A DNA stretch of 64,000 nt from Roseibacillus sp. (GCA_965242925.1 CBDEUM010000014.1:352001-416000), one strand, 5' to 3'. Counted from the stretch's first letter, positions 46,599 through 63,342 are shown. Notes: generated by a model from the letters alone, not told the origin. A program made the numbers and translations.

Positions 46599-47897
46599 CT
46601 ACAGCTCCTTGACGAAGATATTCGCGAACTCAAGCGGATTGCCGTGGTGCTGGAATCCAAGCTTCCCGGTGGGTTTCACCCCGGGGAGCTGCGCTTCGTG
46701 CAGCACCACCTTCCCGTTGAGGACCACGGTGAGGCGGTCACCCTTCACCGTGATGACGTAACGGTTCCACTCCCCCACCTTGTTGTCGGCAGGGACCCGC
46801 GGGGTAAGCGCGGCCCGGATGGGAAGGGGCTGCCTGCTGTCGTTGCGGATCCCGTAAACCTCGCCGGAACCGACCGTCCAATTCCAGAGATTGACTTGGG
46901 TGTGAACTGCCCCGCGTAAAAGTACGCCACTGTCATACTCATCGATTTCGGAGGTCACCCCCTTCTTGTCAGGTCCGGTTTTCTGGAGGCCATTGAGAAG
47001 CAGGACCGGCTGGTTGCGTTTGCCCGAGTGCTCCCCGGTCCAGCGCCAGTCGGTCACCACCGTGAAGTCCTTGTAGTCCTTACTGGTCCAGAGATTGGTC
47101 CCCTTGCCATCGTAGTGCAGGATCCAGCCGTCCTTCACGGTCCAGTGTCCCTTGTTTTGCGGGTCCTCGGCAAAGTTCTTGAGAGATCCCCCCGCCATGA
47201 CCGGCGTGAATCCCTCGCCTGCCAGACGGTCATCAGCCTTCCCGGCCGGCTGGTACCAAGCCTCCGTCTTGTCCTCTTCAAAGGAAATTTCCGCGATCCG
47301 CATCTTGCGCACCCCGATGATTTCCCCGTGACCAGCAAAACAAACGTGTCCCTTGCGCCGCTTCACGCCCTGGTGCTTGGGGTTCTTCCTGCTCAGTTCG
47401 TCAAGATTGGCATCGGTGATGCAGACTCCGTTCAGTTCGACCGTGACACGTGGGCCACGCACCGTCACCCGCTGCCTGTTCCACTCTCCCACCGGGGCGA
47501 GGTGCCCCCGCAACGAGGCCTGCAGTGAGTAGACCGACCCGTGGAACTGCCATTCCTTCAGGTCCTTGTACTTGTCCGCGGTATTGTCAATGATCTGCAG
47601 TTCCATTCCGGTGTAGGCCGGGTTTCCGCTGCCCGGATAGTGGATCCCCAGGCCGTTGTTGGCACCGGGAGTAAGCTGGAATTCCAATTCGAGAATGTAG
47701 TCCGAATACTGCTTCTCGGTGCTCAGGTTCCCGCTCTGCCTGGACGACTCGATGATGCCATCCTTGACGAAGTAGCCGTTCTGTTCGGTCTTTCCAGACG
47801 CTCCGAAGTTAGTGAAGTCCTTTCCGTTGAAAAGCTCCACCCAGTCGGCGGAAGCAGGCAGGGAAAGGGCAAGGAAACAGGTGGCTAGGGCTTTCAT
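46599..47897 (-). CDS. Tandem DUF1080 (3-keto-disaccharide hydrolase family), secreted
   Basis: WVELFNGKD, ELQIID, GEWN...HG twice. Confidence 0.9.
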   Translation of the reverse strand: MKALATCFLALSLPASADWVELFNGKDFTNFGASGKTEQNGYFVKDGIIESSRQSGNLSTEKQYSDYILELEFQLTPGANNGLGIHYPGSGNPAYTGMELQIIDNTADKYKDLKEWQFHGSVYSLQASLRGHLAPVGEWNRQRVTVRGPRVTVELNGVCITDANLDELSRKNPKHQGVKRRKGHVCFAGHGEIIGVRKMRIAEISFEEDKTEAWYQPAGKADDRLAGEGFTPVMAGGSLKNFAEDPQNKGHWTVKDGWILHYDGKGTNLWTSKDYKDFTVVTDWRWTGEHSGKRNQPVLLLNGLQKTGPDKKGVTSEIDEYDSGVLLRGAVHTQVNLWNWTVGSGEVYGIRNDSRQPLPIRAALTPRVPADNKVGEWNRYVITVKGDRLTVVLNGKVVLHEAQLPGVKPTGKLGFQHHGNPLEFANIFVKEL

Positions 47898-47954
47898 GAT
47901 AGTCGTGTGGTTGGGTGTGAATCTTGTAACTTTGAACCTGGAGATTAAAAGCAG

Positions 47955-49031
47955 CTAAAGTTCGACCGTTTTCCCGGTCCGGTAGGATTCGTCGGCGCCC
48001 GCCACGATACGCATGGAATTCAGGGCGTCTTCCATATGCTCGCTGAGATCAAGGTCTTCCCTGATGGCCTTCAGGAAGTATTCCTGCTCGCGGAAACAGA
48101 GCTCGTCGTGATCCGGCTCGTCGGTCATGTCGATCCACTCGTCCTCTTTCGTGAACTCCCTGTTTCCGTCCACTTCACTGTGGTGAATGCGCAGCGACTC
48201 GGTCTTACTGTGGGCGTCCACATCCGCGGAAGACCCCTTGCCGCCGGCTTCCTTCGCTTCAATGGTAACGCACCCATTCGGGCCCACCACGTCCTTCACG
48301 AAGAAAGCCATCTCACTCATCATGGGGCCCCATCCCGCCTCGTACCACCCCACGCTTCCGTCCTCAAAGGCAACCTGCAGGTGTCCGTAGTTGATCTTGT
48401 CCTCGGGAATATCGTTGGTCAGGCGCGCGCCCAGTCCGGAAACTCGCACCGGCTTCGAACGCGTCATCTGGCACATCACGTCCACGTAGTGCACCCCACA
48501 GTCGACGATCGGGGAGATCGAGGAAATCAGATTGCGGTGCGTCTCCCAGGCCGACCCCGAACTCTGCTGGTTCAGATTCATGCGCATGACCAACGGCTTT
48601 CCCAGGGTCCGGGCGATCTCGATGAACCGGATCCAGCTCGGATGGACCCGGAGGATGTAGCCGATCACCAGCTTCTTCCCGCTTTCCTTCGCTCTCGCCA
48701 CGATGCTTTCCGCATCTGCCACCGTCTCCGCCAGCGGCTTCTCAATGAAGACATGCGCGCCGGCCTCGAAAGCGGCCTCGGCATAGGGCCCGTGGGTATC
48801 AGGATAAGTCGAGATGCTCACCGCGTCCGGCCTGGTCTCCGCCAGAGCCTCGTGGAAGTCGCCAAATTCCGCATAGCCGCCACCCAGTTCCTCGTTGAGC
48901 TTCCCACGCGATTCAGGCGAGCGGGTCACAATTCCCACGATCTCGAACGCGTCGAGCTTGTGGTAGGCCCGGGCATGCGAGCTTCCCATGTTACCGGCGC
49001 CGACACAGAGAATACGGATCTTGTCACTCAT
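47955..49031 (-). CDS. Gfo/Idh/MocA oxidoreductase (no signal peptide)
   Basis: VGAGNMG, FIEKPLA and DCGVHYVD motifs. Confidence 0.92.
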   Translation of the reverse strand: MSDKIRILCVGAGNMGSSHARAYHKLDAFEIVGIVTRSPESRGKLNEELGGGYAEFGDFHEALAETRPDAVSISTYPDTHGPYAEAAFEAGAHVFIEKPLAETVADAESIVARAKESGKKLVIGYILRVHPSWIRFIEIARTLGKPLVMRMNLNQQSSGSAWETHRNLISSISPIVDCGVHYVDVMCQMTRSKPVRVSGLGARLTNDIPEDKINYGHLQVAFEDGSVGWYEAGWGPMMSEMAFFVKDVVGPNGCVTIEAKEAGGKGSSADVDAHSKTESLRIHHSEVDGNREFTKEDEWIDMTDEPDHDELCFREQEYFLKAIREDLDLSEHMEDALNSMRIVAGADESYRTGKTVEL

Positions 49032-49114
49032 TGGGTTGCAGGGACGGTGGCATGACCATCCCGGTCATGTCCAGATGCGACCGGGAGGCCGCACCAATTC
49101 TGCCAGCAGCTTCC

Positions 49115-50401
49115 TTACACCTTCCAGGGACCGCGCATCCCCTGGTGCACGTACTTGTCGGCCTCCGGTTCATCGATCTTGAAGGTCTTGGGATCGTAGC
49201 GAAAACTCTTGTTGGAACGGTGGGCGATCGTTCCCAGGTTCACGATGGAGGCGGAACGGAAGGCCTTGGTTTCGTTCAGCGCGAAGGTCTTGCGCTCCCG
49301 CACCGCCTGGTGGAAATCGGTGATCTGCGGCTCGGGGTCCTTGAGCGACTTGAGCTTCTCGTTGAACCCTTTGACGTCGGACTTGAATCCGCGCGAGATG
49401 CTGCCGGCCGATCCCTGGATGTAGGGCGTGTCCTTCTCGCGGTTGTCGCCGTCGAGGATGAGCTTGGTCCCGTCGGCATACTTGTACTCGATGCGCCGCC
49501 AGCGGCCCACCGCATCGTGGTGCTGCTTGTCGGCATCGATAAAGACTTCCACCGGACTCTCCTCGTCCTTGCCCAGGATATACTGAACCGGATCGAGATA
49601 GTGCTGGCCCATGTCACCCAGGCCGCCGCCATCGTAGTCCCAGTAGCCGCGGAAGGATCCGTGGGTGCGATGCCGGGTGTACGGTTTTACCGGAGCCGGT
49701 CCGAGCCAGAAATTGTAGTCGAAGTGCGCCGGGATCTTTTCCTCGGGCTGGTCGATCCTGCCCGACCATCCGAACTTCCAGTTGAAGCCCTGGTTGCCGC
49801 CCACCGTCACAGTGAGCGGTCCGTCGCCCAGTAACCCGTGCATGACCGCCTTGCGAATGGGCGCGACCGGAATGCCCATTCCGTAGAAGCCGTCCTTGAA
49901 GCGGAACCAGGTGTTGATGCGGAAGATGGTCTTGTGCTCGCGCATGGCCTTCACCATCGCGATGCCCTCACCGATGGTCCGGCTCATGGGCTTTTCACAC
50001 CAGACGTCCTTGCCCTGCTTGGCAGCCTCGATGGCTTGCAGGGCGTGCCAGTGGGGCGGCGTGCAGATGTGGACCACATCAATGTCATCGCGCGCGCATA
50101 ATTCGCGGAAATCGTGATAACCCTTGGGATCGTGCCCGCGCTTCTTGGCGTCCGCGGTGCGCCCGGCGAGACGCTGCTTGTCGACATCGCAGAGCGCCAG
50201 GAGCGGTCCCTTCTGTCCAACGTGGGCGCCCGATCCCGAGATCCCTCCGCAACCGATGATTCCACGCGTGATCTGCTCGCTGGGAGGACGCTTTCCCCTG
50301 GCCCCGATGACGTGGCTGGGAACGATCTGGATCGTGGCGAGGGCCGCCAGTCCCTTGAGAGTCTTGCGGCGGGTAAACACTGGTTGCGATTGTTTGTTCA
50401 T
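49115..50401 (-). CDS. Gfo/Idh/MocA oxidoreductase, Tat-exported
   Basis: FTRRKTLK twin-arginine leader; TPPHWH, CEKP, WLGPAP and DMGQHYLD motifs. Confidence 0.92.
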   Translation of the reverse strand: MNKQSQPVFTRRKTLKGLAALATIQIVPSHVIGARGKRPPSEQITRGIIGCGGISGSGAHVGQKGPLLALCDVDKQRLAGRTADAKKRGHDPKGYHDFRELCARDDIDVVHICTPPHWHALQAIEAAKQGKDVWCEKPMSRTIGEGIAMVKAMREHKTIFRINTWFRFKDGFYGMGIPVAPIRKAVMHGLLGDGPLTVTVGGNQGFNWKFGWSGRIDQPEEKIPAHFDYNFWLGPAPVKPYTRHRTHGSFRGYWDYDGGGLGDMGQHYLDPVQYILGKDEESPVEVFIDADKQHHDAVGRWRRIEYKYADGTKLILDGDNREKDTPYIQGSAGSISRGFKSDVKGFNEKLKSLKDPEPQITDFHQAVRERKTFALNETKAFRSASIVNLGTIAHRSNKSFRYDPKTFKIDEPEADKYVHQGMRGPWKV

Positions 50402-50452
50402 CTTGAGTGATTTCTACGTTTTATGATTGAATGCTCTTCCATGGGATCCGGT

Positions 50453-51856
50453 CTACTCCCCAGCCTCGTCGTCCTCAGTCACCTTGACCTTGTCCCAGAA
50501 AGCGAGAAAGAAAATCACCGCAACGACGGCTGCCATGATGGCCGGGAACATCCAGAACGACTTCCACTGCGCCATGGTGCCGGAAAGCAGAGTTGCATCG
50601 ACGCCCTCCGGCATCTTCACTGAGAACATCTGCCCCAGTTGCTCAAGGAAACCCGGATCAGCATTTCCCCGCGCTGTCGAGATGGCTCCGTCGAGTTCCC
50701 CAAATTTCGTCACTCCATCCCCAAGTCCGCTAAAGTCCGTGTCGACCCAGAATAGTTTCGCCGGTCCTCCCTGGTAGAAGATTCCGAAGGTGATTGCGTA
50801 GCCGATATACATCCCGATTCCCTGCGTGAAGAAGACCAGCATGCTTTGCGCCTGGCTCCGGATCTTCTTGGGCGCCACCCGGTCCGTATACATGAATCCA
50901 GTTACGAAGAAGAAGTCGTAGCAGATTCCGTGAATCGCCACTCCCAGGAAGATCATCCACACCACTTGCTCGGGCGCCCCGAACGCAAAGAGAAGATAGC
51001 GCGCCACCCACGCCAGCATCCCGACCAGGATCATCCATTTTACGCCCAGTTTCCGGAAGAAGAAGGGGATGAGGAGCATGAAGAAGATCTCCAGCATCTG
51101 GCCGATCGTCATGGTGGAGGCAGGCTGGACAAAACCCGTATTGCCAAGGTAGTTGCTCATCGTCCCAAAATAGTAGGCCGCCGGAATGCAGATCAGCATC
51201 GAGCAAATCATGAAAACTGCGAAGGCGGGACGCTTGAAGAGCCCGAAGGCATCGACCATCAGGAGGGCGCGGAGATTGACCGGTTCGCCCTTGGCAGGAG
51301 CGGGAGTATGCGGGAGAAAGAAGGAATAAACCCCCAGCACCAGGGAGGCGGCACCAGCCAGATAGAACATGTCAAATTTCGCCGACCACCCGAAGATTCC
51401 CACCGCAAGTCCTGCCGCGATCCATCCGATCGTTCCCCAGACCCGCACCTTCGGAAAGGCCATCCGATCGAGATTGGCGAAGGCGATCGAGTTTCCAAGA
51501 CCAAGGGTCGGCATGTAGCAAACCATGTTCCCGATCATGATCCACACCATCAGTTTGCCCTTCTCCTCCCCTCCTTCAGCAACGCCGGGAATGAGCAGGA
51601 GAAGAACGCCTCCTATTAAGAAGAGGACGCCCATCACCTTTTGGGATGGGAAGAATCGGTCCGCAATCAGGCCCAGGAAGAGAGGCGCGATCATGGCGCC
51701 CAAGGGGGCCGACCCATAGGCTCCGCCAGCAAATCCAAGCAGGCCATTACTGCCCAAGCACAGCCCCAAGGTCGCGAACCAAGCCCCCCAGGTGAAGAAC
51801 TGGAGGAACATCATGATCGAGATCTTGTACGTGTTGGTGGAGCGGAGATCGGACAT
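50453..51856 (-). CDS. MFS transporter, NupG/nucleoside:H+ symporter-like
   Basis: MFLQFFTWGAW, RVWGTIGW and HGICYDFFFVTG motifs. Confidence 0.92.
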   Translation of the reverse strand: MSDLRSTNTYKISIMMFLQFFTWGAWFATLGLCLGSNGLLGFAGGAYGSAPLGAMIAPLFLGLIADRFFPSQKVMGVLFLIGGVLLLLIPGVAEGGEEKGKLMVWIMIGNMVCYMPTLGLGNSIAFANLDRMAFPKVRVWGTIGWIAAGLAVGIFGWSAKFDMFYLAGAASLVLGVYSFFLPHTPAPAKGEPVNLRALLMVDAFGLFKRPAFAVFMICSMLICIPAAYYFGTMSNYLGNTGFVQPASTMTIGQMLEIFFMLLIPFFFRKLGVKWMILVGMLAWVARYLLFAFGAPEQVVWMIFLGVAIHGICYDFFFVTGFMYTDRVAPKKIRSQAQSMLVFFTQGIGMYIGYAITFGIFYQGGPAKLFWVDTDFSGLGDGVTKFGELDGAISTARGNADPGFLEQLGQMFSVKMPEGVDATLLSGTMAQWKSFWMFPAIMAAVVAVIFFLAFWDKVKVTEDDEAGE

Positions 51857-52180
51857 TATAGGTTCGGTCGTGTTGTGAGCATCGCATTTGAGGGATTCGC
51901 TCTCCCCCCGGCAAGGCCGGAATCAGCGCGCCGTGGGCCCGTAGCACGTAGACGGAACTCCTCTCTTAACCCGTCTGGACTGAATAATGAACGCCCCTTC
52001 CCAACCTTCGCTCGGCAGGATTACCCGGAAATGCGCCCAAATTAGAGCCCCTCCACCCATCCTGCCCTTGAAAATCTGAAGTCCCCGCTTCGGATCGCTC
52101 CTCTTCCGGAGGTGGTCTAATATCTTGAAAGGAAAGACCGAAACCTTACCGTAACCGCCCATACGAACCGTGACCACCCC

Positions 52181-53497
52181 ATGAGCGACTCCACCAACTC
52201 CACCCGCCGCAACTTCGTAAAGACCACCACCGCCGCCACGACTGCCTCCGCCGTCGTTGGCTTCCCGCACATCGGCCGCGCCGAGATCGGCAGCAGCAAC
52301 ACCATCAAGGTGGGCCTGATCGGATGCGGCGGACGCGGAACGGGGGCCGCCACCCAGGCCCTGAAATCCGACGACAAGGTGAAACTCTGGGCCATGGCCG
52401 ACGCCTTCCCCGAGAAACTCGAGGGCCCGCTCAAGACCCTGGGAGCCGCCTTCGGCAAGGAGCGCGTGGAGGTCGCCAAGAACCGCCAGTTCACCGGTGT
52501 CAATGCCTTTGAGGAACTCGCCGCCTCCGACGTGGACGTGGTCCTCATGGCCACCCCCCCGGGATATCGTCCCATGATGCTGCGCAAGTGCATCGAGGCC
52601 GGCAAGCACGTCTTCGCCGAGAAGCCCATGGCCATCGACATGGCAGGGATTCATCACCTGATGGAGACCGCCAAGATCGCGGACGAGAAGAAGCTGGCCA
52701 TCCAGCACGGCTACTGCTGGCGCTACAGCCCGGCCAACCGGGTTGGCTTCGCCAAGGCCCACGGCGGTGAGATGGGCCGCATCACCAGCTTCGTGGGCAC
52801 CTACCTGGGCGGCACGGTACGCGCCCTCGCCCCCGACGCCACGAAGCCCGAGGGTATCAGCGATGTCGAGTGGCAACTGCGCCACTGGATCAACTTCGAG
52901 TGGCTCTCCGGCGGCCCGCTGATGGAGCAGTGCATCCACGCCGTCGACAAGATGGCCTGGGCCATGGGCGATGCCGCCCCGGTGGCCGCCTTCGGCAATG
53001 GCGGTCGGGGACAGCGCCGCGATGCCGGTAACGTCTACGACAACTACTCGATCACCTACGAGTATCCCGGCAACACTTTCTGCCAGATCCAGCAGCGACA
53101 GTACAACAACTCCTTCAACGAGAACGTGAGCCGCATCATCTGCGAAGACGGCACGGTGATTGGTCCCTGGAGAGTTTCCACCAAGGACTCCAAGGGGAAG
53201 ACCAACTGGAAATACCGGGCCGAGAAGGGCGTGGAGCAGAACATGTATCAGACCTGCCACAACGAATTCTTCGCCAACCTGCGGGCCGGCAAGATTATCA
53301 ATTCCTGCGAATTCATGGCCAGGTCCACCGCCCTCGGCATCCTCGGCCGCGAGGCCGCCCACACCGGCCAGCGAATCACCTGGGACGAGCTCTGGGCCAC
53401 CAGCGAGGACCAGGCTCCGGACAACCCGCCCCTGGACGGCAAGATGCCCATCCCGGCTCCCCCGGTCCCCGGGATTGACAAACTGGTGAAAGCCTAG
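52181..53497 (+). CDS. Gfo/Idh/MocA oxidoreductase, Tat-exported
   Basis: TRRNFVK leader; IGCGGRGTGAA, ATPPGYRP, EKPMAID and WLSGG..MEQCIH motifs. Confidence 0.93.
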   Translation: MSDSTNSTRRNFVKTTTAATTASAVVGFPHIGRAEIGSSNTIKVGLIGCGGRGTGAATQALKSDDKVKLWAMADAFPEKLEGPLKTLGAAFGKERVEVAKNRQFTGVNAFEELAASDVDVVLMATPPGYRPMMLRKCIEAGKHVFAEKPMAIDMAGIHHLMETAKIADEKKLAIQHGYCWRYSPANRVGFAKAHGGEMGRITSFVGTYLGGTVRALAPDATKPEGISDVEWQLRHWINFEWLSGGPLMEQCIHAVDKMAWAMGDAAPVAAFGNGGRGQRRDAGNVYDNYSITYEYPGNTFCQIQQRQYNNSFNENVSRIICEDGTVIGPWRVSTKDSKGKTNWKYRAEKGVEQNMYQTCHNEFFANLRAGKIINSCEFMARSTALGILGREAAHTGQRITWDELWATSEDQAPDNPPLDGKMPIPAPPVPGIDKLVKA

Positions 53498-53597
53498 CGG
53501 CTTTCCGGGAAAGACGGTATAGTGGGTAATGGAGTGGGGCGACAATCGCCCCACCCCCCTTGCCAAGAGATCCCTGCTTCCCCCTTCACAGATCCCC

Positions 53598-54857
53598 ATG
53601 AAACGACTCCACCAGATCCTCATGAGCGGCGTGGCCCCTTTTCTGGGAGCCCTCCCGTCCCTTGCCGAAGAACCCGCCGCTGAACAGCACCCGGTGGTCA
53701 AGGCCCCGGCCGAGTTCACCAGCTCCACCCCCACGCCCTCCCAGTGGAACCTGCCCTCCATGGACCGGATGTTCGTGAGCAAGAAGGTCCACGAGGTGGT
53801 CACCAAGAAGGGCGGACCCTCGGCGCTGGAAGCCATGAAGGACTATGAGGAGGTCGCTCCCCGGGCTGACAAGGCCAAGTACAAGATGATCGCCCTCAAA
53901 GGAGGGGAGTTCGTGATGGGCTCACCCGAGGGCGAGCACAAACTGCGCACCGAGGACGAAGGCCCGCAGAAGAAGATCAGGATCGAACCCTTCTGGATTG
54001 GACAGACGGAGATCCCCTGGGCCCTTTACAAACCGTTCTACGAAAACGGGGTCGCCCGCAACAAGGACGGCAGCCTCCTCGCAGAAGGCGCGAAGCAAAA
54101 TATCACGGTGAAAGGCAAACAACGCAAGAAGGCCATCCAGGACGCCCTCTTACGCGGGAACCGCAACAATGTCGTGGACGTGGTCTCCCAGCCCACTCCG
54201 CAGTATCACGACATGTTCGGCAGCGGCGAACACGCCTCGGACCTGAACTACCCCGCGATGTGCACCACCCAGCATGCGGCCTCCAAGTTCTGCCAGTGGC
54301 TCACCGCCCAGACCGGTCACTTTTACCGCCTCCCTACCGAAGCTGAGTGGGAGTATGCCTGCCGCGCCGGTTCCTCCACCGCCTTCTGTTTCGGCAACGA
54401 CATCGAGAAGCTCGATGACTACGCCTGGCACGGTTACAACTCCGAATACACCTACCACCCGGTGGCCACCAAGAAGCCCAACCCGTGGGGCCTCCACGAC
54501 ATGCACGGCAATGTCGCGGAGTGGGTCCTCGATGGCTTCAATGCCAGTTACCGGAAGAGCATCGTGGACGGCACGGTCAACCCTTGGAACATCGCCATCA
54601 CCCGCTACCCGCGTATCGTAAAGGGTGGCTCCTGGGACCAGGACCAGGACGAGTGCCGCAGCGGCGCCCGCCTGCATTCCGTCAACGACTGGAAGGATAC
54701 CGATCCGCAGGTGCCGAAGAGCATCTGGTACCATACCGATGGCCAGCACATCGGGTTCCGCATCGTGCGGCCGCTCAAGACCCCCGCCGCAGAGGAGATG
54801 CACCTCTACTGGAACACCGACTGGTTTGAACCCACCAGGAACGCAGAGGATCTCTAG
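53598..54857 (+). CDS. FGE/SUMF1-fold protein, secreted, lacking the FGE catalytic Cys pair
   Basis: FVMGSP, RLPTEAEWEYACRAG, PNPWGLHDMHGNVAEW and GFRIV motifs. Confidence 0.9.
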   Translation: MKRLHQILMSGVAPFLGALPSLAEEPAAEQHPVVKAPAEFTSSTPTPSQWNLPSMDRMFVSKKVHEVVTKKGGPSALEAMKDYEEVAPRADKAKYKMIALKGGEFVMGSPEGEHKLRTEDEGPQKKIRIEPFWIGQTEIPWALYKPFYENGVARNKDGSLLAEGAKQNITVKGKQRKKAIQDALLRGNRNNVVDVVSQPTPQYHDMFGSGEHASDLNYPAMCTTQHAASKFCQWLTAQTGHFYRLPTEAEWEYACRAGSSTAFCFGNDIEKLDDYAWHGYNSEYTYHPVATKKPNPWGLHDMHGNVAEWVLDGFNASYRKSIVDGTVNPWNIAITRYPRIVKGGSWDQDQDECRSGARLHSVNDWKDTDPQVPKSIWYHTDGQHIGFRIVRPLKTPAAEEMHLYWNTDWFEPTRNAEDL

Positions 54858-54889
54858 GGCTTTCCCTGTCGCAGGGAGAACAGATCAAC

Positions 54890-54914
54890 GGCGCAGCCCG
54901 GGCGGCGCCTTTTT
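54890..54914 (+). terminator. Rho-independent terminator
   Basis: GGCGCAGCC-CG-GGCGGCGCC followed by TTTTT. Confidence 0.6.
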
Positions 54915-54946
54915 CGTGCCCCTCGTTTGGGACGTGAAACCGGAAC

Positions 54947-55465
54947 CTACTTCAAGCCGTCCAGGGCCTTCAACAGGTCCTCGCCCTGCCCGCCGGTAGA
55001 CGCTTTCTCGTCCTTCCAGACCAGCTTGCCATCCTTGAAGAGGTAAGCCTGGCGGGAGGCAAATTTCCCCCGGTGAGGCACTCCAAAGGCCTTAACCACC
55101 GTGCCGTCAACGTCAGCCAGGAGATCAAAGGGCAGCTTCTGACTCTCCGCGAAAGTCTTCTGGGCAGCCACCTTGTCGAAGGACACCCCATAGATCTTCA
55201 CTCCCTTTTTCTGCAGTTTCTCGTTTGCGTCCCGCAAACTACACACCTGCTTCGTTCATCCCCCGGTAGAGGCCTTGGGATAGAAGAAGAAAAAGGCCAG
55301 TCCCTCGGCGGCCACCTCGTGAATCCTGATCACCTCCCCCTTGTGATTCGTGACCTCCGCCCGGGGAAGGGCTTTGCCAAGTTCAAGGGTTTCCCCCATC
55401 GTAGAGTCCGCGAGGGCGAAAATCGAACCAACCCCCGCCAGCAGTGCCGTAATCTTGCGCTTCAT
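54947..55465 (-). CDS. Peroxiredoxin (BCP/PrxQ-like), probable selenoprotein with in-frame UGA at 55256-55258
   Basis: Track ORFs 55256-55744 and 54947-55246 are in one frame: FFYPKASTGG*TKQVCSLRD...GVSFD...FDLLAD. The stop replaces the peroxidatic Cys. Confidence 0.85.
55223..55239 (-). promoter_or_regulatory. Bacterial SECIS-like hairpin
   Basis: GUUUGCG-GGA-CGCAAAC: a 7-bp stem whose G-first loop begins 23 nt after the UGA. Confidence 0.7.
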
Positions 55466-56537
55466 GACCCGACCCATATCCCGTCCCCGCAGGAATGCCA
55501 AAAGGTTTTTCCTGCTGCTGACAGTGCTTGCTCTCGGGAGCGGACTGCTGTGGGTCGTCCCCTGGTTCAAGAATCGCGTTGGGAGAGGGCAACGGAACAA
55601 CCCGCCCGAACTGACTGAGGTTGACTCCGGCGATCGCCCCCTCATGGGCACTACTGCACGCATCGTGGTCCATGTTGGGGACGTGGAAAAAGGACAGGCC
55701 GCCATCGAGGCCGCCTTCCAGCGGGCCGAGGAGATCAACGCCATCTGCAGTGACTATAACCCGGAGAGCGAGATCATGAGACTCTGCCGTGAGCCCATCA
55801 ACCGCCCCATTCCAGTCTCCGGGACCCTGGCTGCCGTCCTCGCCCACGCCCGGACCATCGCGGAGCTCACCGAGGGCTCCTTTGACCCCACCCTGGGGGG
55901 CTTCACCAAGCTCTGGCGCAGATCGAAGCGGAAGCAGGAACTTCCCGATCCCGTTCTCCTGAAGAGAGCGCGCCAGGCTGCGGGATGGGAAAAATTCGAG
56001 GTCGAGATTGAGAATCGCGTGGTCATCGTGAAGGACGAAAACCTCCTCTTTGATCTGGGCGGGATCGCCAAGGGATACGCCGCCGATGAAATGCTCAGCG
56101 TGATCACCGCCCGGGGGATTCCCTCCGCGATGGTGGCGGTGGCGGGCGATGTCCGACTGGGAGCCCCACCCCCCGGCCGGATCGGATGGGCGGTCGGCAT
56201 CAGGACCCTCGGGGCGGACATCGAGCAGATTATCCAAGTCTCCAATTGTGCTGTCTCCACCTCCGGAGATCTCGAGCGTTACGTGGAAATAGAGGGAACG
56301 CGCTACTCGCATATCATTGATCCCGGCACGGGCCTCGGCCTCACCCGCCGCATCGCCGCCACGGTGGTCGCACCCACCGCCGTGCAGAGTGACCCGCTGG
56401 CCACCTTCTGCTGCATCAGGCCCGAACTCGCCCGGAAAGTCTTCGCCGCCGGGGAAATCTCCTGCCGCATCGTCGGTCTGGGAGGCGGGCCCTACGATCA
56501 CAGGACCCAGCAGTTTCCCGCCTTCACCCTCCCCTAG
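55464..56537 (+). CDS. apbE: FAD:protein FMN transferase
   Basis: LMGT, FDPTLG, DLGGIAKGYAAD, STSGD and YSHIIDPGTG motifs; N-terminal TM anchor. Confidence 0.95.
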   Translation: MTRPISRPRRNAKRFFLLLTVLALGSGLLWVVPWFKNRVGRGQRNNPPELTEVDSGDRPLMGTTARIVVHVGDVEKGQAAIEAAFQRAEEINAICSDYNPESEIMRLCREPINRPIPVSGTLAAVLAHARTIAELTEGSFDPTLGGFTKLWRRSKRKQELPDPVLLKRARQAAGWEKFEVEIENRVVIVKDENLLFDLGGIAKGYAADEMLSVITARGIPSAMVAVAGDVRLGAPPPGRIGWAVGIRTLGADIEQIIQVSNCAVSTSGDLERYVEIEGTRYSHIIDPGTGLGLTRRIAATVVAPTAVQSDPLATFCCIRPELARKVFAAGEISCRIVGLGGGPYDHRTQQFPAFTLP

Positions 56538-56643
56538 TATTGCTGCCCCAACTGGTGGTAGTTCCTGCCGTGCCGCTGCCGACACCGGGCCGGACCCAGA
56601 AAATTCTCGCAAACTCCTCCCCACCACCTTTCATCTCCGCGCT

Positions 56644-57809
<1,166 letters not shown>

Positions 57810-57813
<4 letters not shown>

Positions 57814-58643
57814 AGAAAACCACATTCAACCAGATCGTTTTCAGCCTGGCCACCATCGCATGGGGGATCGTGCCGGTCTATTTCTACGCCTGGGGCCTCA
57901 TCGATAAATACCTCAACGAGTCCTTTCACCTGATCGCTCTCATCGGCGGACTGGCCATGATGGTCCTCGGCCTCTTCAACCTCATTCATGCCAGTCGCCA
58001 CCTGAGCTGTGGACACGATCACAGCCATGAGCACGGGAAGAAAGACGATCACGGACCGGCCCACGACCACCACGAGCAGAACCCCGTAGCCGCCCTTTGC
58101 CTCATGATTTTCCCGGTCATCCTCTGCACCGGCTTTACCAAGCACGAATATTCCAAGGAGGCCCTCCGCTGGAAAGGGCTCTATAAGCAGCGGACCCTGC
58201 GTTCGCTCTACTCCAACTACAATGCCGAGTTCACCCGAGAGCTTCTTGAGAAGCGAACCCCCAGGACCGGGGAGGGCAATTTCCTGCTTCAGTTCACCGA
58301 GCTCTACTGGTCGGCGGGCGATGAGAAGATCATGAAGATCTACGAGGGTTTGCCGGCCCAGCTTGAGGGACGACTCATCGAGGAGGACCCCGATCTCGAC
58401 CACGACGCCAACCGCAAGCGCCTCTACCGCGTGGTGATGACTTGCTGTGCCGCCGATGCCCAGGTGCTCGGGGTGCCCCTGCAATTTGGAGGTTCCCTTC
58501 CAACGCTGCCTGAGAAGAGCTGGGTGACGGCCAGGGGCAAGGTCGCTTTCGAGTTGATTGACGGGCAGTACTTCGCCTACCTCAAGGACTGTGAGGTGGA
58601 GGCCACTGAAGCTCCCGATCCCCGCGCACAGAGTCGCCGCTGA
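57810..58643 (+). CDS. DUF1980/YcgQ-type (TIGR03943-like) permease partner
   Basis: 3 TM segments, CGHDHSHEH loop, 'RVVMTCCAADAQ' motif; GTGA overlap with the permease. Confidence 0.88.
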
Positions 58644-62631: not shown

Positions 62632-63342
62632 TCAGGATTCCCCGCCTCCCGACTCTCCGTCTTCCTCCTTGCTGGCCTTCATCACAATCACCCCGTAAAC
62701 GAGGTGGAAGAATCCGAAGCAGAATCCCATGATCAGGCTGGCTTCCAGTATCAAACTCTCCATTCGATCCGGGGTTCCCAGGCCAGGCAGTCGATTTGCG
62801 CCATCACTCCACGAATAGAGGAAGGCGGCGAGGCCCGCGATAAGAAAGGCCAGCCCCAGACGTGGAATGGAAGCCGGGGCCAGTCCCCGCGTGGCAAGCA
62901 GGGCCAACCCATAACAGGTCACCCAGATCGAAGCACCGGACGCGGAATCCCCGTCCGCCTTCAACGTCAGCGCGATTCCAAGGACTCCGCCGACCAGCAT
63001 GGGCGGGATAAACGCCCGCAGCGCCATCTTGAGGCCCGGCGAGAAGAACGGTCGCCCTTCCCGTTTGGACTTTCGGGAGACCAGCATGACATTGAAAAGC
63101 GTGGTCAGAACAAGGGCAACCAACCAGCAGATGACCCACGAGCCTTCCGAGATCCCCTTTTCTCCCACCGTTCCCTCCAGGATGGCCGCCTGCTCCCTGA
63201 GAAAGAGGAGGGCCGCCAAGAGAACCGCCAGCGAGCCTCCAAACAAGGCTGTAGGCCATGAGATTGTGCGGTAGACCGTTGTCCGCTCCATCAATGACCG
63301 AATCACCTTGAGATGATTCGCGGCCTGCTCCCGCTCCGTCAT
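62632..63342 (-). CDS. Membrane protein (about 6 TM) paired with the wHTH regulator
   Basis: HLKVIRSLMER and FGFFHLVYG motifs; hydrophobic segments. Confidence 0.8.
   Translation of the reverse strand: MTEREQAANHLKVIRSLMERTTVYRTISWPTALFGGSLAVLLAALLFLREQAAILEGTVGEKGISEGSWVICWLVALVLTTLFNVMLVSRKSKREGRPFFSPGLKMALRAFIPPMLVGGVLGIALTLKADGDSASGASIWVTCYGLALLATRGLAPASIPRLGLAFLIAGLAAFLYSWSDGANRLPGLGTPDRMESLILEASLIMGFCFGFFHLVYGVIVMKASKEEDGESGGGES

Follow-up and report, generated by a model that had tools for sequence, protein, structure and literature searches.

The enzyme ApbE is a flavin adenine dinucleotide (FAD):protein flavin mononucleotide (FMN) transferase whose target motif is given as D-x-x-[S/T]-G-A-[S/T] in the passages covered of PMC12052999. 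Its FMN_bind substrates (NqrC, RnfG, NosR, PceC and PplA) have an electron-transfer role and are served by an extracytosolic ApbE encoded beside the target, according to the covered parts of two papers (PMC8238504, PMC12052999). The present analysis concerns a stretch of 64,000 nucleotides from Roseibacillus sp. (GCA_965242925.1 CBDEUM010000014.1:352001-416000), referred to below as the window (G+C ~60%). In this window apbE lies close to the genes of a secreted protein of formylglycine-generating enzyme (FGE) fold and of an exported Gfo/Idh/MocA dehydrogenase, here called GfoC. The three proteins probably constitute a portable periplasmic redox module in which ApbE flavinylates Thr200 of the FGE-fold protein, a reading that we favour with modest confidence.

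The locus resembles the FMN_bind systems in an ApbE, here putatively extracytosolic, that is encoded beside the putative target, in the D-x-x-[S/T]-x-x-[S/T] spacing, which ends in a hydroxyl residue, and in the electron-transfer role, established there and proposed here. It differs from them in the FGE (C-type-lectin-like) fold of the target, in a Q-P pair that replaces G-A and in the partner, which is an NAD-type Gfo/Idh/MocA dehydrogenase instead of a membrane complex. Because two canonical motif positions fail and the fold differs, the FGE-fold protein is not a member of a known ApbE substrate family. Other comparable cases are DUF2271 and DUF3570 (Meheust 2021, PMC8238504) and FMN_red and Flavodoxin_4 (2024 preprint), which were recognised by the same reasoning, from an apbE that is orphan or supernumerary, a neighbour that is conserved and a sequence that resembles the motif. 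Contrary to the window protein, these families carry [S/T]GA[S/T] in the portions of these sources covered. The words sulfatase, FGE and Gfo are absent from the main text of PMC8238504 and of the 2024 preprint. Full-text literature searches, which did not extend to subscription journals, returned no paper in which FGE-fold or Gfo/Idh/MocA proteins are connected with ApbE or with flavinylation.

By their fold, the closest described proteins are PvdO, the Treponema denticola variable protein 1 and PorK/GldK, which have also lost the FGE cysteine pair. Their PDB entry titles name no flavoprotein or dehydrogenase partner, and the subfamily-specific insertions found here set the window protein apart from them. 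On the dehydrogenase side, the glucose-fructose oxidoreductase (GFOR) of Zymomonas is a periplasmic Gfo/Idh/MocA protein exported by twin-arginine translocation (Tat) with tightly bound NADP. The two systems are alike in that a non-dissociable nicotinamide cofactor would have to be recycled in the periplasm. GFOR recycles its NADP with a second sugar substrate and without a partner protein, whereas a separate flavin carrier is proposed here. Exported dehydrogenases of the Gfo/Idh/MocA family abound in Planctomycetota, Verrucomicrobiota and Bacteroidota. To our knowledge the periplasm holds no NAD(P) pool, which raises the question of how these exported enzymes are reoxidised.

A candidate flavinylation site in a secreted FGE-fold protein

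The FGE-fold protein is encoded on the plus strand at 53598-54857 and starts with the Sec-type leader MKRLHQILMSGVAPFLGALPSLA. Its reading frame is open from 53529, but the second Met, at 53598, is the likely start since homologs begin there. Pfam gives PF03781 only (E 3e-38), and the FMN_bind domain (PF04205) is not among its matches. The AlphaFold2 (AF2) model of the protein has a predicted local distance difference test (pLDDT) of 91.9 and a predicted template modelling score (pTM) of 0.90. Its top match in Foldseek is PvdO, followed by the T. denticola variable protein and by true FGEs (E ~1e-14 to 1e-15), which places it in the FGE fold. The best PDB matches are non-catalytic (PvdO, T. 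denticola variable protein 1, PorK/GldK); the relatives found in structure searches also include enzymes, i.e. FGE and the sulfoxide synthases EgtB and OvoA.

Active FGE has a catalytic, copper-binding Cys pair after GGS[YW]. The preliminary description of the locus had noticed KGGSWDQDQDECR at 54621-54659 in the place of this pair and judged that the protein was probably not a sulfatase maturase. An alignment of 98 homologs, down to ~35% identity, bears this out. The corresponding stretch reads GGSWDQDQDECR; its sole Cys, C353, is kept in 13 of the 98 sequences, and residues 343-358 contain no other conserved Cys. Since there is no conserved Cys pair, a role in sulfatase maturation was discarded. 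Invariant residues peculiar to the subfamily include D369-P370-Q371 and W377, and two insertions are specific to it, the motif loop and W-K-x-x-D-P-Q-x-P-K-S. The protein is probably a secreted, non-catalytic candidate for an ApbE substrate and flavin carrier.

The heptad D-V-V-S-Q-P-T is encoded at 54177-54197. Its last codon (54195-54197) specifies the candidate acceptor Thr, which is residue 200 when counted from 53598 and 223 when counted from 53529. In the AF2 model the motif comes after a short helix (192-195) and opens a long loop. The canonical spacing is kept, with D194, S197 and T200 at positions 1, 4 and 7 of D-x-x-[S/T]-G-A-[S/T]. In the 98-homolog alignment, column 194 contains D80, T13 and 5 other residues, column 197 S52, T26, C16, A3 and V1, column 198 Q79, R7, G6, A3, S2 and V1, column 199 P95 and A3, and column 200 T92 and S6. 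Only a hydroxyl residue is thus accepted at position 200. The canonical motif tolerates changes elsewhere: in the passages covered of PMC12052999, D->A altered little, G->A or A->V still allowed ~50% of flavinylation, and losing the last Thr abolished it.

Motif sequences were also read in 41 open reading frames (ORFs) from 39 loci of other lineages. The motif ends in T or S in 40 of them, the exception being a cut, unalignable ORF. The homologous heptad is a fully canonical DGITGAT in a Draconibacterium metagenome-assembled genome (locus L083) and DAIVGAT in L090, and these two orthologs are the only ones with G-A at positions 5-6. Six loci (L072, L086-L089 and L091) have D-x-x-[ST]-G-P-T, and most of the remaining ones D-A-[VI]-[ST]-[RQH]-P-[TS]. 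As orthologs present these forms at the same place, D-V-V-S-Q-P-T lies at one extreme of a gradation leading up to the canonical site. The earlier proposal that this heptad is the substrate of the neighbouring ApbE is therefore in keeping with its conservation, both in the T/S end of all 98 homologs and in its grading into canonical D-x-x-T-G-A-T in orthologs.

Taken alone, the loose pattern D..[ST].[PA][ST] is at chance level (174 of 3476 open frames of at least 300 residues in this genome), and the case therefore rests on conservation and gene neighbourhood. The canonical motif had been reported missing from the neighbouring proteins, and the real reading frames of 46599-56537 do contain zero [ST]GA[ST]. 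Genome-wide, D..[STA]GA[ST] gives 27 matches in 17931 open frames, one of them within the window. This match, DSASGAS, belongs to a protein encoded at 62632-63342 on the minus strand. It was set aside as probably due to chance because of the frequency of the pattern, and the only family signal in the protein is a sub-threshold YtcA match. The protein is a multi-pass membrane protein with DSASGAS in a loop, and its gene lies beside that of a small winged-helix regulator.

The family to which the FGE-fold protein belongs is large: at least 7995 proteins match the query at E<=0.001, and the motif was inspected in the best 120. A profile search of a representative library yielded no usable sample of the subfamily, its best 150 matches being almost all giant multi-FGE-repeat proteins. 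The search for longer homologs was also dominated by multi-repeat proteins. Six longer relatives were tested, namely three ORFs of the same order, two library representatives (P0320 and P0334) and one long homolog (P0192), and all six have an N-terminal PSCyt1 haem c domain. These haem-fused relatives keep the motif site, e.g. D-A-V-S-M-P-T and D-A-V-S-S-P-T, and five cytochrome-fused forms within the order also have ApbE next door. As an architecture, the haem c fusion points to electron transfer. Another set of relatives (P0206-P0242, ~740-790 residues) combines the FGE-fold domain, with the site D-A-V-T-R-P-S, with an N-terminal extension of ~400 residues in which weak FG-GAP-like signals were seen and a haem motif was not found.

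The predicted GfoC partner and the linkage to ApbE

The gene of GfoC (52181-53497, plus strand) encodes a Rossmann domain with GxGxxG and E-K-P motifs and a C-terminal domain (PF01408, PF22725). Across 31 orthologs, residues G48, G50, G53, E147, K148 and P149 do not vary, nor do R9 and R10 of the twin-arginine leader TRRNFVKT. Of 42 adjacent GfoC orthologs, 40 have an RRx[FLIV] leader, the other two being one cut and one mis-started ORF. By this signature GfoC is predicted to be exported by Tat. Its closest counterparts of solved structure are inositol dehydrogenases, the C-glycoside 3-oxidase DgpA and GFOR, all of them distant (E 1e-13 or weaker). The Gfo protein was also considered as the ApbE target and rejected, as 0 of the 42 adjacent Gfo proteins have a flavinylation-like motif; the G-T-G-A-A stretch found in them is the Rossmann glycine loop.

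Complex modelling, suggested in the preliminary description, was carried out on the pair formed by GfoC (residues 36-438) and the FGE-fold protein (residues 45-419), with NAD and FMN included as ligands. A confident heterodimer is predicted, with the motif at the cofactor cleft. The ipSAE scores are 0.82, 0.88 and 0.82 against 0.00 for the best control; the runs have at least 72% of contacts in common and the pLDDT of the partner is at least 88. In the calibration, 116 of 157 solved complexes and 2 of 215 mismatched pairs scored at this level, counts that only roughly apply because own alignments were used and ligands were present. On the FGE-fold side the predicted interface comprises residues 201-205, 208-212 and 214, right after Thr200, and 370-373 in the invariant D-P-Q-x-P loop. 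On the GfoC side it comprises 51-58 (the GxGxxG loop), 82-91, 207-214, 250 and 309-357. From this list of residues, the motif would be exposed beside the dehydrogenase interface and not buried. The model supports binding of GfoC by the FGE-fold protein, short of demonstrating it, and we rate this association somewhat higher than the flavinylation of Thr200.

The ApbE of the window (55464-56537, plus strand, ORF open from 55350) matches PF02424 over profile positions 1-248 of 266 (E 2e-63). Thirteen ApbE/Ftp sequences of the PDB match it with E 1.5e-32 to 4e-22. Its blocks DLGGIAKGYA, TSGDLERY and YSHIIDP align with the catalytic and FAD-binding blocks of TM1553 and of T. pallidum Ftp, and the His of the H-I-[IL]-D-P block is the proposed general base in the part of a review that was covered. 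Judged from its residues, the N-terminus FFLLLTVLALGSGLLWVVPWF resembles a membrane anchor. The genome contains a second ApbE of 312 residues with a lipoprotein-like leader (C14:72330-73082). At this other locus (L003, C14:70830-74582) it adjoins a PepSY-like membrane protein and a 171-residue FMN_bind protein that accounts for the single PF04205 match of the genome (C14:74036-74266). The site of this FMN_bind protein is N-N-I-A-G-A-T, with Asn for the 'strictly conserved' Asp and Ala for the first S/T.

A quick IQ-TREE phylogeny was built from 53 ApbE sequences, 31 linked to an FGE-fold gene and 22 others of the same genomes. Thirty of the 31 linked ApbEs fall into one 34-row group spanning five phyla, with a Shimodaira-Hasegawa-like approximate likelihood ratio test (SH-aLRT) support of 95. 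This group includes the window ApbE and excludes the second ApbE of the genome. The four unlinked rows within it come from genomes with an FGE-fold ortholog elsewhere (L078, G026, G033 and G049), and the linked ApbE that falls outside is from Pedobacter. The linkage label changes 5 times on the tree against 17.2 times in shuffles, with 0 of 500 shuffles as low, a figure inflated by near-copies. In this phylogeny, the ApbEs linked to the FGE-fold subfamily are a clade of their own.

Linkage of apbE with the other two genes was followed at several distances. Around orthologs, 20 related loci have GfoC adjacent in 19 cases and ApbE present in 17. A minus-strand peroxiredoxin gene (54947-55465 in the window) separates the FGE-fold gene from apbE in all 13 same-genus loci among them. 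Three other genera have GfoC-FGE-ApbE, contiguous and on one strand, and a fourth has ApbE-GfoC-FGE. In one of these related loci (L049, G031:C52), genes for a xylose-isomerase-like TIM barrel and a DUF1552 protein stand divergently upstream. The loci without ApbE are L047, L050 and L051. In L047 (G033:C76), a Gfo gene and two FGE-fold genes are followed by two PSCyt1 cytochrome c proteins where ApbE would be, one of PSCyt1/DUF1549/DUF1553 and one of PSCyt1/WD40 composition. L050 has a paralog beside a sulfatase, and L051 has neither cytochromes nor a sulfatase-paired paralog.

Within the order, ApbE lies within 3 kb in 30 of 46 ortholog-bearing genomes (17 of the genus, 7 of other genera of the family and 6 of other families). 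Orthologs were taken at E<1e-60 for this count, which was obtained by matching two tables by hand; the genomes are related, hence not independent samples. In a species-wide contig scan, ApbE was found in 14 of the 39 closest loci, in the same cluster in 13 of them and 9 kb off in one; 23 of the 39 loci have a Tat-Gfo ortholog at most 3 kb away. The closest loci with ApbE belong to Verrucomicrobiota, Planctomycetota, Bacteroidota, Acidobacteriota and Gemmatimonadota. Because several loci stop at contig edges, these counts are lower bounds. In 39 more distant FGE-family loci, ApbE and GfoC were each found 0 times. Linkage to apbE outside this genome, as anticipated earlier, was thus observed at 17 of 20 related loci and at 14 of 39 closest loci of five phyla; as far as gene order can tell, the arrangement is present in at least five bacterial phyla. 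Three loci (L065, L072 and L077) have an ApbE-FGE pair without adjacent Gfo. Given these pairs and the motif-free Gfo, the candidate target within the cluster, if ApbE has one there, is the FGE-fold protein.

Genes surrounding the putative module

Pfam scans and ORF reading placed all the genes named in the preliminary description at the coordinates reported there, D-V-V-S-Q-P-T and KGGSWDQDQDECR included, and confirmed that two of the three Gfo proteins are of Tat type. Upstream of GfoC, four genes all lie on the minus strand, divergent from GfoC-FGE. The first (46599-47897) encodes a tandem DUF1080 protein of the 3-keto-disaccharide hydrolase family, with two stretches matching PF06439 (3keto-disac_hyd) and a visible signal peptide, hence secreted. 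It is followed by a Gfo/Idh/MocA oxidoreductase identified by Pfam (47955-49031), which has no signal peptide and is cytoplasmic. The next gene (49115-50401) encodes the second Tat-exported Gfo/Idh/MocA protein, of GFO_IDH_MocA_C2 type (PF19051, E 3e-113) with the twin-arginine leader TRRKTLKG. These two Gfo genes are syntenic within the genus. The structures nearest to the second Tat-exported protein are PDB 8TDF and 8TDH, for which a literature search found no relevant paper. A NupG-like transporter of the major facilitator superfamily (MFS) completes the group (50453-51856; PF03825, Nuc_H_symport, E 3.5e-88).

The peroxiredoxin gene located between the FGE-fold gene and apbE had been overlooked in the preliminary description. 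It encodes an exported AhpC/TSA protein, with the Pfam AhpC-TSA match on its C-terminal part, and contains an in-frame TGA (55256-55258) exactly at the expected peroxidatic Cys (FYPKASTGG-TGA-TKQVC). All 14 same-genus loci retain this TGA. Some 20 nt 3' of it stands a 7-bp hairpin with compensatory changes, A:T replacing G:C in 5 loci and G.T replacing it in one. The genome also has a tRNA-Sec (C30:304340-304433) and a SelB-like ORF; SelA was not found in this genome, which is 89.9% complete. The peroxiredoxin is likely a selenoprotein. Its insertion at this place is restricted to this genus, and the presence of a periplasmic peroxidase beside a candidate flavoprotein may be no accident. Since this gene intervenes on the opposite strand, the FGE-fold gene and apbE are not one operon here. 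The peroxiredoxin and apbE start back to back, with ATG codons at 55465 (minus strand) and 55464 (plus strand) that overlap at 55463-55466 and leave no intergenic promoter space. This overlap is kept in the genus, where the tblastn matches overlap by ~4 bases.

On the 3' side of apbE, Pfam and ORF reading give an ArsP_1-type permease (56317-57813, plus strand) with a loop of ~30 Asp-His repeats. It is directly followed by a DUF1980 protein with a His-rich segment (57810-58643, plus strand). The pair has the appearance of a metal-transport system and stays 3' of apbE within the genus.

Proposed mechanism and competing explanations

In the proposed mechanism, GfoC would fold around NAD(P) in the cytoplasm before Tat export, as its leader and family suggest, and the FGE-fold protein would leave via Sec. 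The putatively membrane-anchored ApbE would then move FMN from FAD onto the hydroxyl of Thr200, D-V-V-S-Q-P-T being in this case a diverged form of D-x-x-[S/T]-G-A-[S/T]. The flavinylated protein is predicted to dock on the cofactor cleft of GfoC, with the post-Thr200 loop and the D-P-Q-x-P loop against the GxGxxG loop, so that the tethered FMN could reoxidise the trapped NAD(P)H following oxidation of a sugar or glycoside. Electrons would be handed on to a cytochrome c or another acceptor, the fused haem c domain possibly serving as the acceptor in relatives. The neighbouring tandem DUF1080, Gfo, Gfo and MFS genes may supply the substrate context, i.e. 3-keto-glycoside or sugar breakdown. Whether this arrangement represents a widespread class of periplasmic two-protein dehydrogenases is about evenly balanced in our judgement. 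In such a class, a Tat-exported, NAD(P)-loaded Gfo/Idh/MocA enzyme would be wired to the respiratory chain via an FGE-fold subunit, whose FMN would be phosphoester-linked by a specialised ApbE clade at D-x-x-[S/T]-x-P-[T/S].

Several observations weigh against flavinylation of Thr200. We know of no flavin site in the FGE fold. Positions 5-6 of the motif are Q-P and not Gly-Ala, and among 98 homologs 13 have T in place of the first Asp and 16 have C in place of the middle S/T. No apbE lies within 10 kb of the orthologs whose motifs are the most canonical (L083 and L090). An adjacent ApbE is lacking from 16 of 46 genomes of the order and from 25 of the 39 closest cross-phylum loci, some of them at contig edges, and in this genus a gene on the opposite strand separates the FGE-fold gene from apbE. 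The complex model describes the interface between the proteins, and its alignments and ligands set it apart from the calibration. The conserved loop could owe its conservation solely to a role in this interface. Finally, the covered passages of PMC8238504, PMC12052999 and the 2024 preprint contain no tested ApbE substrate with Pro or Gln at the G-A positions.

Some of these observations would also fit an explanation that we consider unlikely, in which the FGE-fold protein has no redox role and acts as a structural cap or subunit of GfoC. The D-x-x-S-x-P-T loop would then serve only as an interface or retain NAD(P), while ApbE would serve another target or free FMN by FAD hydrolysis as Treponema Ftp does. 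A motif-adjacent loop within the predicted interface is enough alone to explain conservation, the motif is non-canonical, many orthologous loci lack ApbE, and an FAD pyrophosphatase activity of the Ftp type is described in the covered parts of two papers (PMC4767422, PMC4436053). A structural cap agrees poorly, however, with the pairing of ApbE and the FGE-fold gene in loci without adjacent Gfo, and with a dedicated ApbE clade. There is no other conserved neighbour, and the Gfo proteins are motif-free (0 of 42). The T/S in last position of 98 of 98 homologs, the canonical GAT of some orthologs and the haem c fusions, which suggest electron transfer, also argue for flavinylation of Thr200 over this explanation.

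It is less probable still that the FGE-fold protein is itself an enzyme, e.g. an oxidase or lyase whose substrate is the keto-sugar product, with a catalytic or ligand-binding Thr. True enzymes of this fold do exist (FGE, EgtB and OvoA) and many residues are invariant in the subfamily, D369-P370-Q371 and W377 included. The FGE Cys pair is nevertheless unconserved and the closest solved relatives (PvdO, the T. denticola variable protein and PorK) are non-catalytic; an enzymatic role would moreover leave the ApbE linkage and the haem fusions unexplained. Least of all would we expect apbE to be unrelated to the upstream genes and to serve a distant substrate, such as the classical FMN_bind target that the genome has at C14:74036-74266, or to work with the ArsP-type permease and DUF1980 protein, the adjacency in this genus being accidental. 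For such a reading, apbE is divergent from the peroxiredoxin gene and has the permease and DUF1980 genes after it on the same strand. Against it, the adjacency is seen again in further genera, families and phyla, where the flanks differ, an ApbE gene of its own accompanies the FMN_bind target, the window ApbE groups with FGE-linked ApbEs of five phyla, and permease and DUF1980 do not follow ApbE in L049, L052 and L053.

If the proposed flavinylation of the FGE-fold protein is true, it would explain the turnover of exported Gfo/Idh/MocA enzymes without free NAD(P). It would add a fold and a relaxed motif to the ApbE substrates, thereby widening both the recognition code of ApbE and the range of functions of the FGE fold, and motif searches for [S/T]GA[S/T] would miss such substrates. 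A large group of genes annotated "formylglycine-generating enzyme family" would likewise acquire a function.

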